DNA of 64,000 nucleotides from the sequence record MT611523.1; one strand, written 5' to 3'. A program made the translations under genes and the position numbers. The notes beneath the pieces were generated by a model. The model was not told the DNA's origin. It ran no database searches and was given only the letters and a program-made list of their open reading frames with translations. Source of the DNA: Escherichia phage DK-13. Each line of letters opens with the position of its first letter. Position 1 is the first letter of the stretch. Positions 14,948 to 63,413 of this stretch are shown here, piece by piece.

Positions 14948-14977
14948 ATTATGCACTGGACAACCCCTGTTGTAAAC
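14948..14977 (-). promoter_or_regulatory. early promoter (GTTTACA, 17-nt spacer, CATAAT) directly downstream of terminator
   Basis: - strand GGGTTTACAACAGGGGTTGTCCAGTGCATAATGATTCCATACTGA; shares the 3' half CATAATGATTCCATACTGA with copies at 50092 and 53991. Confidence 0.5.
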
Positions 14978-14984
14978 CCTTTAT

Positions 14985-15016
14985 GGAAAATAAAAAAGGG
15001 ACTCCGAAGAGTCCCT
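14985..15016 (-). terminator. rho-independent terminator
   Basis: - strand GGGACTCTTCGGAGTCCC then TTTTTTATTTT, right after stop of the 15021..15182 ORF. Confidence 0.7.
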
Positions 15017-15020
15017 GAAC

Positions 15021-15182
15021 TTATGCTTTCGGCTTACCAAAGCAAGCTGCATCGGCACGCAATACCGCACGAGCACGAGCCTGAAGTTTATCAGTTACCT
15101 GATTGATTCGCTTGTTGGACGCACGCTTGTAACCAGCGCGTTTGGAGGAGCCATCAACAACTTTAACTTCTTTCTTAGCCAT
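15021..15182 (-). CDS. small basic protein (53 aa), not in ORF track
   Basis: ATG..TAA ORF MAKKEVKVVDGSSKRAGYKRASNKRINQVTDKLQARARAVLR...; weak SD; followed by terminator. Confidence 0.35.
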   Translation of the reverse strand: MAKKEVKVVDGSSKRAGYKRASNKRINQVTDKLQARARAVLRADAACFGKPKA

Positions 15183-15479
15183 ATTAAATTCTCTTTAAAA
15201 ATAGAATGCAGGACTTATTGACATTGCCTGCGCAAGCCCTCGAAGGGAACATTAGGTTTCGGATATTTAACGACAGGATAACCATAAACCTCGTCATCAT
15301 ACCAACCACGACTTAGACAGATAACCTTTTTCTGACGCGTGATAGTACAAAATACATTCAAGAGGTACACCATAAAACTGTCGGGGTCTTAAAACTATAA
15401 CGATTCGCAAATCATTAATCAGACAGTTCGATGGCTCCTCGATTTTCTAGCCGCACTAAGGTAGCGAATCACCTAAAAC

Positions 15480-15734: not shown

Positions 15735-15905
15735 TTTAGAAGCCTCAATATGAGGTGAATATTTGGTGGACACGTTCTTCTGAATTTCACTTCCTTTCGG
15801 CAAGTCTCTCAGTTGTAGTCCACCGTTTAGGATTAGCTAACCCCATACACCAGCAAAGCTCTGTATGACATCAACCAATCCATATTATTATTTATAACGC
15901 TAATT

Positions 15906-20748: not shown

Positions 20749-20752
<4 letters not shown>

Positions 20753-21231
20753 ACACCAAGCTCCTTATAAAGTTCTTCGCGACAAGTTTTAAGGATTTTA
20801 CCAGTTTCATAAGCTGCGCTTTCAGAAACATCACCAAGTGTGGCGGCAGCTTGCATTTGACCATGGCGTTTAGCCGCATATTCAAAACTTTTTACCAGTT
20901 CACGAATACGTTCTTTTTCATTGTATTCTTCAATAAATTCTGGGTATTCCCAAACAGGTCGCATCATACGATACCAATGCTGAATAGTAATATAATTACT
21001 TCCATCCAGATTAATAATTTGCGAAGGCTTAATAGCGCCCGGGGCATAAAAAGTTACCTGTCTCACTACATCAATACCGTCCACAATAGCCCAAGCAAAA
21101 TTGAAAGTGGCCTTCTTTTCAATTGGTGTGCTTGCACAGGACCCTAATTTTAAGAGCTTTTGTAATACAGGAGATTTAACACCTGAAATGTATTCAGGCT
21201 TAGCCACAAAACTGTTATCACGTAATGTCAT
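20749..21231 (-). CDS. hypothetical protein with its own promoter cassette
   Basis: Start moved to ATG after GAGGAAATGATT (tracker start lies inside the promoter); about 160 aa. Confidence 0.5.
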
Positions 21232-21258
21232 AATCATTTCCTCAAATTTTATTATCCG

Positions 21259-21294
21259 TGGGAGCATTATACTCTGCTCCCATGAGTTTGTACA
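21259..21294 (-). promoter_or_regulatory. early promoter with inverted repeat spanning -10
   Basis: - strand TGTACA-aactcatGGGAGCAgag-TATAAT-gCTCCC; arms GGGAGCA/TGCTCCC. Confidence 0.5.
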
Positions 21295-22811: not shown

Positions 22812-22850
22812 ATTATGTATAGAAAGAAGGGGCTTGTACACCCCTTTTTA
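22812..22850 (-). promoter_or_regulatory. compact terminator-promoter: -35 TGTACA sits in the loop of the rnlA terminator hairpin, -10 CATAAT
   Basis: - strand AAAAAGGGGTGTACAAGCCCCTTCTTTCTATACATAATGG. Confidence 0.5.
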
Positions 22851-23987
22851 TTATTCAGGAAGGATTACTTCCGCTTGGTAGTCTAACGGAATGTAAAGTT
22901 TATGATTTTTAAGGAAAACTTTATTGATTTGAGCAATCGTTTGTTCAGTTTCCTGTGGGCGTTGATAGGTGTTCATTAATACGGAGAACAATCCCGGGTA
23001 AGGTTTGCACAACTCTTGACCTTTAATCGCAAACTCGCGACGGTCTTTTCCTGCCAATTGTTTCTGAGCATCAAGCAACAATCCAAGAGTGTTGGACAGA
23101 TAATCCAGATGCGTTACAGTAAAGGCATTAACTTTTTCGCGAGCATAAGTATCGCCAGTAAACATGGCAATAACATCATCCGCCCCGCCAGCAACAACAA
23201 CTTCAAACAGTCGCTCATTATTATTAATGGAGTCTTTAGTATGATGCAGAGCACAATACCATTCTGTTTTCATCTTGAACTTCTGACCACTTGCCAACTC
23301 GTAGACGAAGCCTTCAATCTCTTTCATACCACGGACATTCTCAATGCTCGCCGGGTCATATGCTTCAACCAGGAAAGGACGGAGCGCAGCATCTTTGAAC
23401 AGTTCCTGATAAGGAATATATTCACCAGTTTCATTATGGCGAACGTTCAGTAAAATCAGGTCACGTTCCTGGTAAGGCAAAACAATGCGGTTGGTTGGTG
23501 CAACATATTCCATATTGCATGTATAACCAGCTTCAGTGATTTCAGTTACGCGAGTCCTGAATGCACTGCGATGCTCTTGTTTAAACACCTGCAAGGATTC
23601 AGCAGCTTGGGAGCTTTTGATTGACCCTTTGGATTTAAAGGCGATATTAGTCTGGTCCATATAAGTAGAAACCAAGCTACCATCAGCTTTTGCAGTAACC
23701 AGGACAACCTCATCAAGGTTAAGGTCCATGGTCATTGGATTCTCACCCAGATTAAAGAATTTTTCCATAGGACGGGCGGCAATGCGAACTGGACCATTGT
23801 CATCCATTTCAAACATAATGCCACGACACTCCAGCGCATCATCAAGGAGCCAATCACTATAGGAAGCATAGTTATAGCTAAAGATGCGGAACTTAGTTTC
23901 AAATGGAGAAACAAAATCCGTATAGAAAAACTTACCTTTATCGGATTCGGCGCAAAGCTTCATTAAGTTATCATATAATTCAATCAT
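22851..23987 (-). CDS. rnlA: RNA ligase 1
   Basis: 378 aa; FRIFSYNYASYSDWLL.DALECRGIMFEMD...RPMEKFFNL.ENP matches remembered T4 Rnl1 (gene 63). Confidence 0.9.
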   Translation of the reverse strand: MIELYDNLMKLCAESDKGKFFYTDFVSPFETKFRIFSYNYASYSDWLLDDALECRGIMFEMDDNGPVRIAARPMEKFFNLGENPMTMDLNLDEVVLVTAKADGSLVSTYMDQTNIAFKSKGSIKSSQAAESLQVFKQEHRSAFRTRVTEITEAGYTCNMEYVAPTNRIVLPYQERDLILLNVRHNETGEYIPYQELFKDAALRPFLVEAYDPASIENVRGMKEIEGFVYELASGQKFKMKTEWYCALHHTKDSINNNERLFEVVVAGGADDVIAMFTGDTYAREKVNAFTVTHLDYLSNTLGLLLDAQKQLAGKDRREFAIKGQELCKPYPGLFSVLMNTYQRPQETEQTIAQINKVFLKNHKLYIPLDYQAEVILPE

Positions 23988-31262: not shown

Positions 31263-31502
31263 TCACGCTTTCTTAGCGACTTTCCAGTCAGCTTTAAATT
31301 GGTCAACGTCAGAGTGATGAATCCAGAAACCAGATGAGCTACCATCTTCATAAAGAGGACAACCATCACACTCATCTTTCCAACCCATTGCACACAAAGT
31401 TTCTTCAGCTTTTTCCAGAGCTTCTGGATTGTTACCCTGGATTGTGAAATACCATTTGCCTTTAACTTCTGAATCTTTGATGCTCTCACGTTGTAATTTC
31501 AT
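31263..31502 (-). CDS. hypothetical protein
   Basis: Tracker start is TTG inside the promoter; ATG start after CTGGAGAATAAA gives 79 aa (MKLQRESIKD...). Confidence 0.5.
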   Translation of the reverse strand: MKLQRESIKDSEVKGKWYFTIQGNNPEALEKAEETLCAMGWKDECDGCPLYEDGSSSGFWIHHSDVDQFKADWKVAKKA

Positions 31503-31541
31503 TTTATTCTCCAGTTTTGTTGTGTAACTCAATATGGGACC

Positions 31542-31570
31542 ATTATGTCATAGCCCCATTTGGTTGTACA
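31542..31570 (-). promoter_or_regulatory. early promoter (TGTACA, 17 nt, CATAAT)
   Basis: - strand AAAAAGTAGTGTACAACCAAATGGGGCTATGACATAATGGTCCCATATTGAG. Confidence 0.45.
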
Positions 31571-32950: not shown

Positions 32951-32979
32951 ATTATGCCTTAGCTCAAGGGGATTGTACA
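32951..32979 (-). promoter_or_regulatory. early promoter (TGTACA, 17 nt, CATAAT) fused to gene 32 terminator
   Basis: - strand ...TTTTTATTTTAAAAAAGTAGTGTACAATCCCCTTGAGCTAAGGCATAATGATTCCATC. Confidence 0.5.
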
Positions 32980-32984
32980 CTACT

Positions 32985-33016
32985 TTTTTAAAATAAAAAA
33001 GGGACCCGAAGGTCCC
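32985..33016 (-). terminator. rho-independent terminator after gene 32
   Basis: - strand GGGGACCTTCGGGTCCC then TTTTTATTTT. Confidence 0.7.
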
Positions 33017-33022
33017 CTTATA

Positions 33023-49826: not shown

Positions 49827-50042
49827 TTATCCCTTAATAGATTTCATATAATTTGATGCATATGATTGTACCACAGTACGTTTCATATGGGAAGTAGAAA
49901 CAATCACATCAATCGCTTGTTTACGTTCTTCTTTAGAGTTTGCCAGTTTGAACATGTCAAAGTAGTAATAACAAGCTTCTTTATTAGATTTGAATTTAGC
50001 GTTAATGTATTCTTGACCTTCATTCTGTTGTGCAGTAAACAT
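49827..50042 (-). CDS. hypothetical protein
   Basis: Start moved to ATG after GGAGAATAAA (MFTAQQNEGQ...); about 71 aa. Confidence 0.45.
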   Translation of the reverse strand: MFTAQQNEGQEYINAKFKSNKEACYYYFDMFKLANSKEERKQAIDVIVSTSHMKRTVVQSYASNYMKSIKG

Positions 50043-50091
50043 TTTATTCTCCAAAGTTTTTGTGATTCATTGTGTAACTCAGTATGGAATC

Positions 50092-50120
50092 ATTATGCAG
50101 CGGGTCAAGGGGATTGTACA
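50092..50120 (-). promoter_or_regulatory. early promoter (TGTACA, 17 nt, CATAAT) fused to terminator
   Basis: - strand AAAAAAAGTAGTGTACAATCCCCTTGACCCGCTGCATAATGATTCCATACTGAGTTAC. Confidence 0.5.
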
Positions 50121-50130
50121 CTACTTTTTT

Positions 50131-50158
50131 TAAAATAAAAAAGGACCCCGAAGGGTCC
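50131..50158 (-). terminator. rho-independent terminator downstream of gene 52 and the 32-aa ORF
   Basis: - strand GGACCCTTCGGGGTCC then TTTTTTATTTT. Confidence 0.7.
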
Positions 50159-50256
50159 TAGTCTTTATCTATCTTATTACCAATAAACATACCAACAATC
50201 ACACCTGCGATTGCCGCGAAAATACAAAGCAATGCAAACTCAACTCCAAAACTCAT
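50158..50256 (-). CDS. 32-aa hydrophobic membrane peptide, translationally coupled to gene 52 (ATGA)
   Basis: MSFGVEFALLCIFAAIAGVIVGMFIGNKIDKD; SD TGGAGG inside gene 52 3' end; not in ORF track. Confidence 0.35.
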   Translation of the reverse strand: MSFGVEFALLCIFAAIAGVIVGMFIGNKIDKD

Positions 50257-52481: not shown

Positions 52482-52520
52482 ATTAATTTCCTCAGTAAGT
52501 TAAAGTTTTGTGCTCCAGTG

Positions 52521-52555
52521 GGGGTCATTATACTCTGACCCCAAGAGTTTGTACA
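52521..52555 (-). promoter_or_regulatory. early promoter with inverted repeat spanning -10
   Basis: - strand TGTACA-aactcttGGGGTCAgag-TATAAT-gACCCC; arms GGGGTCA/TGACCCC. Confidence 0.5.
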
Positions 52556-52900
52556 CTATTTTTGAAGTTGTTCTAAAATAAATCCGCTGGTGTAAAGGCT
52601 TGCATTATACAGGCGGTCAAGAGACAACGAATCCAATCCATAAGCTTCGCGAATTGCATTGATAACACTCTCATAACTTGTATAATAAACATCACGATAA
52701 TCGCGGTCCATAGTCATGCGGAACTTAATAAATTTGTAGAAACCAGTTTCAGGGTCCTGATAGAATGCAAATTCTGCAGACATCAAATTTTTAAGGTTAA
52801 CAGCTTTTGTACCACCTGAATAACTTAAATCAAATGCTTCTGATATGCTAATCTGTTTAAAGAACATAATGTTGCGATTACCAAAAAATACTTTAGACAT
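52556..52900 (-). CDS. hypothetical protein
   Basis: 114-aa ORF with own promoter. Confidence 0.5.
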   Translation of the reverse strand: MSKVFFGNRNIMFFKQISISEAFDLSYSGGTKAVNLKNLMSAEFAFYQDPETGFYKFIKFRMTMDRDYRDVYYTSYESVINAIREAYGLDSLSLDRLYNASLYTSGFILEQLQK

Positions 52901-52932
52901 AATATTTTCCTCAATTAAATTTTATTATCCAC

Positions 52933-52967
52933 GGGAACATTATACTCTGCTCCCAAGAGTTTGTACA
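52933..52967 (-). promoter_or_regulatory. early promoter with inverted repeat spanning -10
   Basis: - strand TGTACA-aactcttGGGAGCAgag-TATAAT-gTTCCC; arms GGGAGCA/TGTTCCC (one G-T wobble position). Confidence 0.5.
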
Positions 52968-53543: not shown

Positions 53544-53688
53544 AATCATCTCCAGTAGTTGATAGGTTCATTATACTACAACCACTGGAGATGTATACTC
53601 TTTTATGCAAGTTTCATTAATAATAAACTAAAACAAACGCAAATTACTGGGATACACAATATCCAGATAAGACACCAGGTTTTGCTGC

Positions 53689-53955
53689 TCAAAATATCAC
53701 CTCTTTGATTTCAATCAGACCACGGTGCAATGCAGTGCGAAGGTCATAAAGAATATCTATGCCATCAACATTATCCAGTTTTCCATCAATAAGCTTTTTT
53801 AAATCACGCTTTGATGCAACTAGCGGGCGAAGAAATTTACATTCAGAAAGAGACAACTCTGTAGTAACATCATCACCATCACCTGACGCATCATACATGG
53901 CGGCAACAACCATACCTGTAACTTTGTGCTTGGCGTAATATAATTTGATATCCAT
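53689..53955 (-). CDS. hypothetical protein
   Basis: 88-aa ORF, SD GGAGAAACAAA. Confidence 0.5.
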   Translation of the reverse strand: MDIKLYYAKHKVTGMVVAAMYDASGDGDDVTTELSLSECKFLRPLVASKRDLKKLIDGKLDNVDGIDILYDLRTALHRGLIEIKEVIF

Positions 53956-53974: not shown

Positions 53975-54019
53975 AACTCAGTATGGAATCATTATACATA
54001 GACTCCATACTGATGTACA
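53975..54019 (-). promoter_or_regulatory. early promoter with 10-bp inverted repeat flanking -10
   Basis: - strand TGTACA-TCAGTATGGA-gtctatg-TATAAT-gat-TCCATACTGA. Confidence 0.5.
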
Positions 54020-54030
54020 CTACTTTTTAA

Positions 54031-54306
54031 TTAATTTTGCATTTGTTCTTTAACTTCTTTATATGCGCCAACTGCATTCACGACCCCAGTAAAATCTGCA
54101 GTCCCACGATAGAGATAGAAAGCAATTTCAGTCAGGTGGTAGACTTCAAATTCTGAAAGATAAACGATAACGTCATAATATGCAACTTGACCCTGGACTT
54201 CGTTGAATACCACATCAAAAATTTCATGGGTTGGAAAATTGATGTTGTTGTTTTTGAGTGCTTGGATAAGAATTTGTTTGATGTTGTGAGTAGTAACGTG
54301 TTCCAT
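54031..54306 (-). CDS. hypothetical protein
   Basis: Start moved to ATG after hairpin-embedded SD (MEHVTTHNIKQ...); 91 aa. Confidence 0.5.
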   Translation of the reverse strand: MEHVTTHNIKQILIQALKNNNINFPTHEIFDVVFNEVQGQVAYYDVIVYLSEFEVYHLTEIAFYLYRGTADFTGVVNAVGAYKEVKEQMQN

Positions 54307-54312
54307 GATAAT

Positions 54313-54338
54313 GTCCTCATTTGTTGGTATGAGGACAT
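54313..54338 (-). promoter_or_regulatory. hairpin sequestering the Shine-Dalgarno of the 54031..54306 gene
   Basis: - strand TGTCCTCA-taccaacaaa-TGAGGACA then TTATCATG; SD GAGGA lies in the 3' arm. Confidence 0.45.
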
Positions 54339-54367
54339 TATTACACAGTTGGTTCAGCTTGTAAACC
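54338..54367 (-). promoter_or_regulatory. early promoter (GTTTACA) inside the 3' end of the upstream gene
   Basis: - strand GGTTTACAAGCTGAACCAACTGTGTAATAATG. Confidence 0.4.
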
Positions 54368-54947: not shown

Positions 54948-54951
54948 CAGC

Positions 54952-55272
54952 TCATCCTTTAAAATACATATCGGATTTTTCGACAATATCCAAAGAATTT
55001 TGCTCAGCTTGCTCTTGATAATCACTGCCAATATAAACTTTGTCTACATGAACGACGCCATAATAAATTCTGGCACTTTCGGCTAGAGTAGAATGGTCCA
55101 GACTACGAAGTTCTTCTTTCGTTGCAAGAATGATGTCTCTCGCATATAACCGGCCAGTTGACTTTGTAGAAGCATAATGACAATCAACACAATAAACAAT
55201 ATCCGCAACATGATTACCATGCAACCGAATTTCATTAATAGATTCATCGCCAACGTTCATATAGTTAATCAT
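54952..55272 (-). CDS. hypothetical protein
   Basis: 106-aa ORF. Confidence 0.5.
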   Translation of the reverse strand: MINYMNVGDESINEIRLHGNHVADIVYCVDCHYASTKSTGRLYARDIILATKEELRSLDHSTLAESARIYYGVVHVDKVYIGSDYQEQAEQNSLDIVEKSDMYFKG

Positions 55273-62850: not shown

Positions 62851-63342
62851 TTAGGCACGATGAATATCAGCATACTCAACGATAAAGCTTTCAGGAACCA
62901 CCTTAAAGGTTCCAAGGAACACGATGTTATAGAGCTTAACGCCTTTTTCAACCCACTGGTCTGTGATGTAACCAGACATGCTAGTGGTTTCATAAGTACC
63001 AAAAGGTTCGTCAACATATTCAAACGGTTTAGGTGAAACAAAAAAGACACCTTTGCCCAATTTCCATTTAAAATCAACCCCAACATGAGACTGGTCAATG
63101 GTTTCAACTTCTTCGGTCACAGGAGCGATGTACCCAGTAAATTCGGTTGATTCCAGGAATTTAGGATGTACATAAGCCAATTGAGTTTCAGTCTGGCCAT
63201 TTTTAGGAATAATACGCACTTTAACTTCTTTAATTCCACCTACTAAATTAGTGCGAAGACCCACAACCTCAACAAAACGACCAGCAGCTTTAGAACGAGA
63301 TTCTTTAGAAACACGTGCAATATCACCAACTTCAACTTTCAT
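62851..63342 (-). CDS. hypothetical protein; candidate MotB-like by position/size; paralog of the next gene
   Basis: 163 aa; basic beta-rich N-terminus MKVEVGDIARVSK...; C-terminus ...GYITDQWVEKGVKLYNIVFLGTFKVVPESF similar to 63419..63889. Confidence 0.4.
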   Translation of the reverse strand: MKVEVGDIARVSKESRSKAAGRFVEVVGLRTNLVGGIKEVKVRIIPKNGQTETQLAYVHPKFLESTEFTGYIAPVTEEVETIDQSHVGVDFKWKLGKGVFFVSPKPFEYVDEPFGTYETTSMSGYITDQWVEKGVKLYNIVFLGTFKVVPESFIVEYADIHRA

Positions 63343-63378
63343 AATTTTCTCTCTTGGTTAATAAGTTTATTCTCCAGT

Positions 63379-63413
63379 GGGGCCATTATACTCCGGCCCC
63401 AAGAGTTTGTACA
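63379..63413 (-). promoter_or_regulatory. early promoter with inverted repeat spanning -10
   Basis: - strand TGTACA-aactcttGGGGCCGgag-TATAAT-gGCCCC. Confidence 0.5.

Follow-up and report, generated by a model that had tools for sequence, protein, structure and literature searches.

Early promoters with the -10 hexamer in the loop of a stem: PeSL-type cassettes in a VR7/SP18-like T4-type phage

The window, the whole 64,000-nucleotide stretch of Escherichia phage DK-13 that was analysed, carries a family of early-promoter cassettes in which the -10 hexamer lies in the loop of a stem whose arms differ in sequence and continue to pair. The cassettes are a further example of the published promoter-early stem-loop (PeSL) class, every architectural feature of which they display. 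They are best read as PeSL-type punctuation of the early genes, in which the stem would serve as a transcript-boundary element that insulates tandem early modules (a probability of about 0.6). The comparison presented here adds to the class a stem that is under selection on the sense strand only, an orthologous promoter in T4 (that of motB), and one cassette that is an indel unit. That the cassettes are active as promoters, where their transcripts start, that they act as boundaries and that they take part in recombination are all inferred from sequence. The window is 93-97% identical to vB_EcoM_VR26, VR20, VR7, SP18 and RZ, and its source is a VR7/SP18-like T4-type phage of the genus Gaprivervirus. 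The cassettes open no new kind of system, and they give a concrete handle on the insulation of densely packed tandem early promoters in T4-type phages.

Cassettes in the window

The pattern TGTACA-N{16,18}-TATAAT has exactly five matches in the window, each of them on the - strand and with a spacer of 17 nt (21266-21294, 52527-52555, 52939-52967, 53991-54019 and 63385-63413), compared with a mean of 0.06 and a maximum of 1 in 100 dinucleotide shuffles. The five - strand copies proposed in the initial annotation are therefore present, and they match the promoter consensus at 10 of 12 positions. Base-by-base checking also agreed with that annotation in placing the -10 in the loop of an inverted repeat in all five copies, and in the arm pairs GGGGTCA/TGACCCC, GGGAGCA/TGCTCCC, GGGAGCA/TGTTCCC and GGGGCCG/TGGCCCC. 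The stem length of 7-10 bp given at that time is correct for four copies, which have 7 bp, and has to be revised for the fifth, which has a longer stem of 13 bp. The four copies with GGG-type arms share the layout TGTACAAACTC(T/A)T-[7 nt]-GAGTATAA-[7 nt], while the spacer of the fifth copy, at 54019, is unlike that of the other four.

The core of the ndd cassette (52521-52555, - strand) lies upstream of the gene encoding Ndd. Its -35 (TGTACA) is at 52550-52555 and its -10 (TATAAT) at 52527-52532, and the arms are GGGGTCA on the 5' side (52536-52542) and TGACCCC on the 3' side (52521-52527). A RegB-type box, GGAGCACAAAA (52506-52516, - strand), follows a few bases past the 3' arm, where the ndd transcript is predicted to begin. 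A 51-nt cassette (52917-52967, - strand; the 52967 cassette) lies between ndd.1 and a 114-aa ORF (52556-52900), and has the arms GGGAGCA (52948-52954) and TGTTCCC (52933-52939), with one internal G.U pair, followed by the box GGATAATAAAA at 52920-52930. Another 51-nt cassette (21244-21294, - strand; the 21294 cassette) precedes a gene (20749-21231) that encodes 160 aa and has no known function, with the arms GGGAGCA (21275-21281) and TGCTCCC (21260-21266) and the box GGATAATAAAA at 21247-21257. These two cassettes are paralogues, identical at 47 of 51 bases.

The cassette at 63365-63413 (- strand; the 63413 cassette) precedes the motB homologue (62851-63342) and is the orthologue of the T4 motB promoter. 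Its arms, GGGGCCG (63394-63400) and TGGCCCC (63379-63385), are closed by a G.U pair, and its box is GGAGAATAAAC (63365-63375). The 54019 copy (53978-54019, - strand) is upstream of an 88-aa ORF (53689-53955); its 13-bp stem, with one G.T pair, is formed by TCAGTATGGAGTC (54001-54013) and GATTCCATACTGA (53978-53990), and the -10 (53991-53996) lies within the 10-nt loop.

Two further - strand copies with variant hexamers also have the -10 in a stem-loop, and were absent from the earlier list because their hexamers deviate. The 53597 copy (53547-53597) reads TATACA-N16-TATAAT and has a stem of about 18 bp, formed by 53576-53593 with 53547-53565. The 31570 copy (31526-31570) reads TGTACA-N17-CATAAT, and its positions 31550-31565 pair with 31526-31543, including two G.U pairs.

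Four of the seven copies with a -10 hairpin (52555, 52967, 53597 and 54019) form a tandem array inside 1.5 kb of the ndd-denB region. In most copies the -35 directly adjoins the stop codon of the gene before it, and in the others the two are no more than 11 nt apart; the Shine-Dalgarno (SD) sequence and ATG follow 29-39 nt past the predicted start. The intergenic unit, which opens with the stop codon of one gene and an A+T-rich stretch and closes with the SD and ATG of the next, is that of a PeSL. The genes downstream of the cassettes are ndd, motB and small genes of unknown function; among the six downstream genes tested, four have no known function, including a small ndd.4-like ORF.

Read as RNA, the - strand of the five TGTACA-N17-TATAAT copies folds into the described hairpins with energies of -12.2 to -21.4 kcal/mol (z -2.0 to -6.0), and the 53597 and 31570 copies fold at -25.5 and -17.1 kcal/mol. 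Taken together, the seven copies have stems of 7-18 bp around the -10, with energies of -12 to -25.5 kcal/mol and z from -2 to -6.7. A stem of at least 7 bp encloses the -10 in 7 of the 14 promoters of the cassette type in the window, whereas in 2000 trials with the downstream 30 nt shuffled the mean was 0.89 and no trial exceeded 4.

The hairpin might instead tune its own promoter, either with the G+C-rich 3' arm acting as a discriminator or through folding of the non-template strand during melting. The positions of the arms would suit such a role, since the spacer is taken up by the 5' arm and the stretch between the -10 and the predicted +1 by the 3' arm, and T4 early promoters are known to have extra conserved positions of unknown role. 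Promoter kinetics, however, would not explain why spacer and discriminator stay complementary, the region of the 5' arm is still duplex in the open complex, and half of the window's promoters of this type are without the stem. Tuning of the promoter by its own hairpin is accordingly quite improbable.

Covariation of the arms and the strand under selection

A 61-nt cassette query found similar sequence in 722 phage records, T4 among them. An arm-free scan of IMG/VR and a metagenome collection, in which the 5' arm was given as seven N and the 3' arm lay outside the pattern, produced 18 distinct cassettes with 13 different arm pairs, all of them complementary. The metagenome collection gave only 6 loci by this pattern, and most of the diversity came from IMG/VR. 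In the alignment of the 18 cassettes, 99.2% of the stem cells pair, compared with 84.4% when partners were shuffled (0 of 500 shuffles reached the observed value), although the shuffle figures overstate independence because the compared cassettes share descent. Pairing falls to 44-52% when the partners are slid by 1-3 columns, a control that is unaffected by shared descent. Four of the seven stem pairs show compensatory changes with both sides altered, and one pair takes six forms (GC, CG, AU, UA, GU and UG). Three unrelated pattern matches with a TTGACA -35 (L023, L028 and L030) act as an internal control, and are without arm complementarity. These comparisons support the earlier proposal that selection would maintain the pairing of the hairpin itself, beyond the promoter hexamers.

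The orthologous loci, for which shared descent is likewise not a concern, present the same picture. The T4 match to the cassette query is the promoter before motB, GTTTACAAACTCTTGGGACCAGAGTATAATGGTCCC, a direct orthologue of the 63413 cassette with the same spacer AAACTCTT and the same loop GAGTATAA. Its 7-bp stem is followed by GGAGTATAAAA, a match to the RegB/S1 consensus. It differs from the window copy in its -35, which is GTTTAC/TTTACA and not TGTACA, and in its arms, which differ by compensating substitutions. The arms at the motB promoter are GGGACCA/TGGTCCC in T4, GGGGTCA/TGACCCC in VR20, GGGGCCA/TGGTCCC in VR25 and VR26, GGGGTCG/TGGCCCC in a metagenome contig and GGGGCCG/TGGCCCC in the window, and G.U intermediates link the series. 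At the ndd promoter, the arms GGGGTCA/TGACCCC of the window's group correspond to GAGGACA/TGTCCTC in a lineage further away. The long 54019-type stem of SP18 has three substitutions in the 3' arm, and all three keep the pairing.

All 10 non-Watson-Crick paired cells in the 18-cassette alignment are G.U on the - strand, where the + strand has A.C. This is in keeping with the claim of the initial annotation that the wobbles are pairs only if the - strand is read as RNA (10 G.U cells and 0 A.C cells). A search that accepted G.U and A.C equally found 24 G.U and 5 A.C cells, with the A.C cells occurring only in weak, chance-looking stems, most of them within coding sequence. Among bona fide cassettes there are at least 12 independent G.U events and 0 A.C events, for which p is about 2e-4, assuming that single transitions are equally likely either way. 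Since the imperfect pairs on the sense strand are G.U only, selection acts on one strand, and the stem is selected as a single strand on the sense side. The sense strand also has the more stable fold in six of the seven copies (for example, -12.2 vs -6.2 kcal/mol and -17.1 vs -8.1 kcal/mol).

The selected sense strand is most likely RNA reading through from upstream, because the predicted start of the cassette's own transcript sits just past the 3' arm. A hairpin of single-stranded sense DNA would show a G.T bias identical to that of RNA. Maintenance of the stem by selection on one strand only nevertheless points to RNA over a DNA recombination structure.

An inverted repeat that acts as DNA is an unlikely alternative. 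It could be a cruciform or single-strand hairpin used as a preferred crossover or cleavage site, as on the recombination side of the PeSL model, or the palindromic operator of a dimeric protein that shuts the early promoters off. Such a role would suit the location of the cassettes at plastic junctions, and the shut-off of T4 early promoters is still without a known mechanism. A cruciform or duplex operator is strand-symmetric, yet the imperfect pairs are all G.T on the sense strand and never A.C, and the arms change freely with compensation, which a sequence-specific protein could not tolerate; for these two reasons an operator or cruciform is rejected as the main explanation. In addition, a 7-bp stem with an 8-nt loop makes a poor cruciform, and the cassette indel observed here takes out the whole 51-nt unit, with no crossing over in the loop.

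The strand bias also bears on whether the stem has a function at all. A single ancestral palindrome could have been kept by templated quasi-palindrome correction during replication, or the stem could be due to chance. The copies are indeed paralogues and orthologues of one family, and quasi-palindrome-templated mutation is a known process in T4. However, chance is excluded by the shuffle tests, and templated correction would not prefer G.T over A.C intermediates. Moreover, unrelated stems of different sequence enclose the -10 at 54019, 53597 and 31570 and in RB49, which points to convergence on the layout. A stem without function is therefore very unlikely.

Proposed transcript boundary, terminators and leader elements

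As duplex DNA, the cassette would be a strong sigma70 promoter (TGTACA or TTTACA, a 17-nt spacer and TATAAT) that the host RNA polymerase would use immediately upon infection. The repeat that encloses the -10 would not serve that promoter, and would take its RNA form only in transcripts from the next promoter upstream. In this read-through RNA a G+C-rich hairpin would fold directly behind the upstream stop codon, and presumably delimits the upstream message at its 3' end. It would pause or attenuate read-through and shield the 3' end of the upstream RNA from exonucleases, so that tandem early modules would be insulated from one another. The cassette's own transcript is predicted, from spacing alone, to start about 7 nt past TATAAT at the first purine after the 3' arm. 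It would thus be free of the hairpin, which would be complete only in read-through RNA, and it would open with a RegB-type cleavage box. Since the unit of about 50 nt is repeated, it may also supply homology for the gain or loss of genes and of the cassette. No usable 5' or 3' end data for the T4 motB promoter came out of a search of the literature for maps of T4 transcript ends (Term-seq or similar).

A bolder and still tentative possibility is that the unit of about 51 nt is a self-contained, transposable piece of RNA punctuation, composed of a U-tract-independent hairpin, a loop-nested promoter and a RegB box. The hairpin may end or insulate the upstream message, the nested promoter may start the next one exactly at the 3' edge of the stem, and the RegB box, at about +3 to +13, may set the lifetime of the message. 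If this is true, T4-type phages would build early operons from one three-function module, and it would be the hairpin, independently of classical intrinsic termination, that sets the 3' ends of mRNAs.

Canonical intrinsic termination was considered for the -10 stems and rejected. The stems have no U-tract, with 0-3 T in the next 8 nt compared with 7 at the canonical terminator at 50142, so they are not canonical terminators and efficient intrinsic termination is not expected of them. The terminator scan likewise does not flag the -10 stems.

Composites of a canonical terminator leading into a promoter occur on the - strand at 14948-15021, 32951-33020 and 50092-50159. Each has a GC stem closed by a TTCG loop, then a T-run, and after this a promoter (TGTACA or GTTTAC-N17-CATAAT) that has no -10 hairpin. 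Their common downstream box is GATTCCAT(A/C)..., which reads GATTCCATACTGA in two of them.

At 14976, 32979 and 50120, promoters of the cassette type lack the -10 hairpin and have a canonical terminator close before the -35. None of the 143 candidate promoters from the window and related loci combines the two. Within the window, the hairpin is found at 0 of 3 terminator-bearing promoters and at 7 of the 11 others (one-sided Fisher p about 0.1), so that mutual exclusion in the window alone is only suggestive. The distribution fits the two arrangements doing one same job. In both, a hairpin lies right behind the upstream gene and before the next start (50142-50159 with 50092-50120 in one composite), and the presumed job is the same. 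They differ in that the terminator hairpin has a U-run and lies upstream of the -35, whereas the stems reported here overlap with the promoter and are not followed by a U-run. At 22812-22862 (- strand), a GGGG/CCCC stem encloses the -35 (TGTACA) in its loop, and a T-rich run comes after the stem; with its stem over the -35, this promoter belongs to a different PeSL subclass.

The RegB/S1 consensus is GG*AGRAYARAA in unstructured intergenic early RNA (Durand et al., as cited in PMC3014915). The four GGG-type copies carry GGAGCACAAAA, GGATAATAAAA (twice) or GGAGAATAAAC within 2-4 nt of the 3' arm, and these RegB-type boxes are separate from the Shine-Dalgarno. Boxes of the form GGA[G/T]NAYARAA are located at 21247-21257, 31502-31512, 50042-50052, 52506-52516, 52920-52930 and 63365-63375, all on the - strand. 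Five of the six exact window matches to GGAKNAYARAA are in cassette leaders, and there is one near-match in addition. The boxes after the stems are a lead as putative RegB/S1 cleavage sites.

The hairpin could also be a translational gate of the kind known from T4 gene e, soc, 49 and I-TevI, in which the read-through RNA hides the ribosome-binding site (RBS) and the promoter's own RNA exposes it. The design is established in T4 (PMC3014915) and resembles the cassettes in having an embedded promoter and a stem that is complete only in read-through RNA. It differs in that the 3' arm of the T4 hairpins holds the SD or AUG, which here is the case only in the 53597 copy and in the hairpin at 54295-54365. 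The 3' arm of the 53597 copy includes the GGAG Shine-Dalgarno of the ndd.4-like ORF, and its RBS is predicted to be unpaired with a probability of 0.60 in the copy's own RNA, compared with 0.07 in the read-through RNA. In the five reported copies, however, the RBS lies 15-30 nt beyond the stem, and its predicted accessibility is alike in the read-through and own transcripts (0.64/0.67, 0.40/0.35, 0.64/0.65, 0.70/0.68 and 0.37/0.31). Gating of translation as the role of the hairpin is therefore highly improbable, and the fold predictions suggest that the 53597 copy would work like T4 gene e and that the others would not. An anti-SD idea, in which the conserved spacer ACTC would pair with a downstream GAGG in read-through RNA, was rejected because RBS accessibility is equal in read-through and own transcripts of the GGG-type copies.

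The 54295-54365 region (- strand) has an 11-bp hairpin, AATGTCCTCAT/ATGAGGACATT, to which the fold adds two A-U pairs. It buries the SD of an HNH-like ORF (54031-54306), ends 1-2 nt before the AUG, and has a 5' arm that overlaps with a promoter-like TTTACA-N17-AATAAT (54337-54365). The arrangement at this homing-endonuclease-like gene is that of gene e, I-TevI and mobE.

Relation to published PeSLs and plasticity of the junctions

As defined in RB49 and phi1, a PeSL consists of an early promoter of the sigma70 type, an upstream region rich in A+T, and a stem-loop that mostly lies between the -35 and -10 or overlaps the -10, with G-T pairs marked (Arbiol et al. 2010, PMC2839356). PeSL211/210 of RB49 is reported to reduce lacZ expression to roughly the extent seen with the rrnB T1 terminator. 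Read directly, the PeSL211/210 stem-loop is also without a U-tract.

The resemblance to PeSLs proposed in the first description of the cassettes was borne out, since the layout matches both the description in PMC2839356 and the RB49 cassettes read directly. One qualification is that PeSLs were put forward mainly as recombination modules with terminator activity, whereas the stems here are without a U-tract. In the order of parts, both have a stop codon, an A+T-rich stretch, a -35 and -10 separated by 17 nt, a G-run/C-run stem-loop in or across the promoter, an SD and an ATG. In both, the units are repeated between small early ORFs in hyperplastic regions, with G-T pairs and no U-tract. At the RB49 junctions 193/192, 205/204 and 186/185, the -10 is in or at the loop, as it is here.

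There is no sequence homology between the two sets: RB49 has TTGACA, other arms and another 5' UTR. The RB49/phi1 sequence family (TTGACA, Gn-loop-Cn stems and a ACACACATACCGAAACGAA leader) was not matched by the cassettes when the RB49 intergenic regions were read directly. In RB49 the stem is most often placed between the -35 and -10; the stem of the present cassettes surrounds the -10. For RB49/phi1, experiments demonstrated promoter function, termination and mini-circles, whereas the cassettes here are known from their sequence.

Comeau et al. 2014 (PMC4122927) extended the PeSL class to PST/T4 and nt-1/KVP40, with lineage-specific sequences. The concept is that of the present work, applied to T-even relatives, and the T4 ndd region (ndd.4/.5) is among the examples given there of PeSL-linked gene exchange. 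The promoter consensus of that study, TTTACW-N17-TAYWAT, is close to the TGTACA/TTTACA-N17-TATAAT found here. The stems differ, those of PST/T4 being described there as just upstream of the promoter, with AGNA-loop-TCNT; the window copies and the T4 motB promoter have GGGNNNN/NNNNCCC arms around the -10, unlike those stems. PeSL-like sequences have also been noted in JS98. The cassettes extend the PeSL idea to the VR7/SP18 group and to one named T4 promoter, that of motB. Comparative evidence that selection keeps the stem, and does so on a single strand, is an addition not found in the consulted text of the two PeSL papers.

The 52967 cassette is a precise 51-nt presence/absence difference, being absent from VR7 and present in the window, VR26 and a metagenome contig. 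In VR7 the ndd.1 stop codon is joined directly to the SD of the next gene, with the whole 51-nt unit missing, and a fourth phage has a small ORF in place of the cassette at the ndd.1 junction. In other places a cassette retains one of its flanks while the other flank changes: at cassettes of the 21294 type, the downstream gene is absent in one contig and its 5' part is replaced in another. Three relatives have an extra 156-nt ORF inserted directly after the 54019 cassette. The ndd-denB region has several indels among the relatives, and the gain, loss or replacement of genes abuts cassettes. A recombination role of the cassettes would be consistent with these data.

Crossover from cassette to cassette as the source of the neighbouring gene indels is not supported at the junctions that were read, which use short SD/ATG homology. 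Several gene-sized replacements or insertions among close relatives, with breakpoints at gene boundaries, were also observed in the ndd-denB region, at 54948-55265 and 53714-53915 (loci L018 and L047-L050). The ORF at 54952-55272 has an RB69 ORF272c-like gene as its counterpart at the same place, and UPEC01 has an extra 156-nt ORF after ndd.

Elsewhere in the window, a 171-nt ORF-free gap between small - strand ORFs (15735-15905, - strand) folds at -52.9 kcal/mol, with z = -4.3 against shuffles, and the neighbouring gap at 15374-15479 is unremarkable. An Rfam scan of the whole window, this gap included, found no family, and a tRNA scan found none. The 15735-15905 gap could encode an undescribed structured small RNA.
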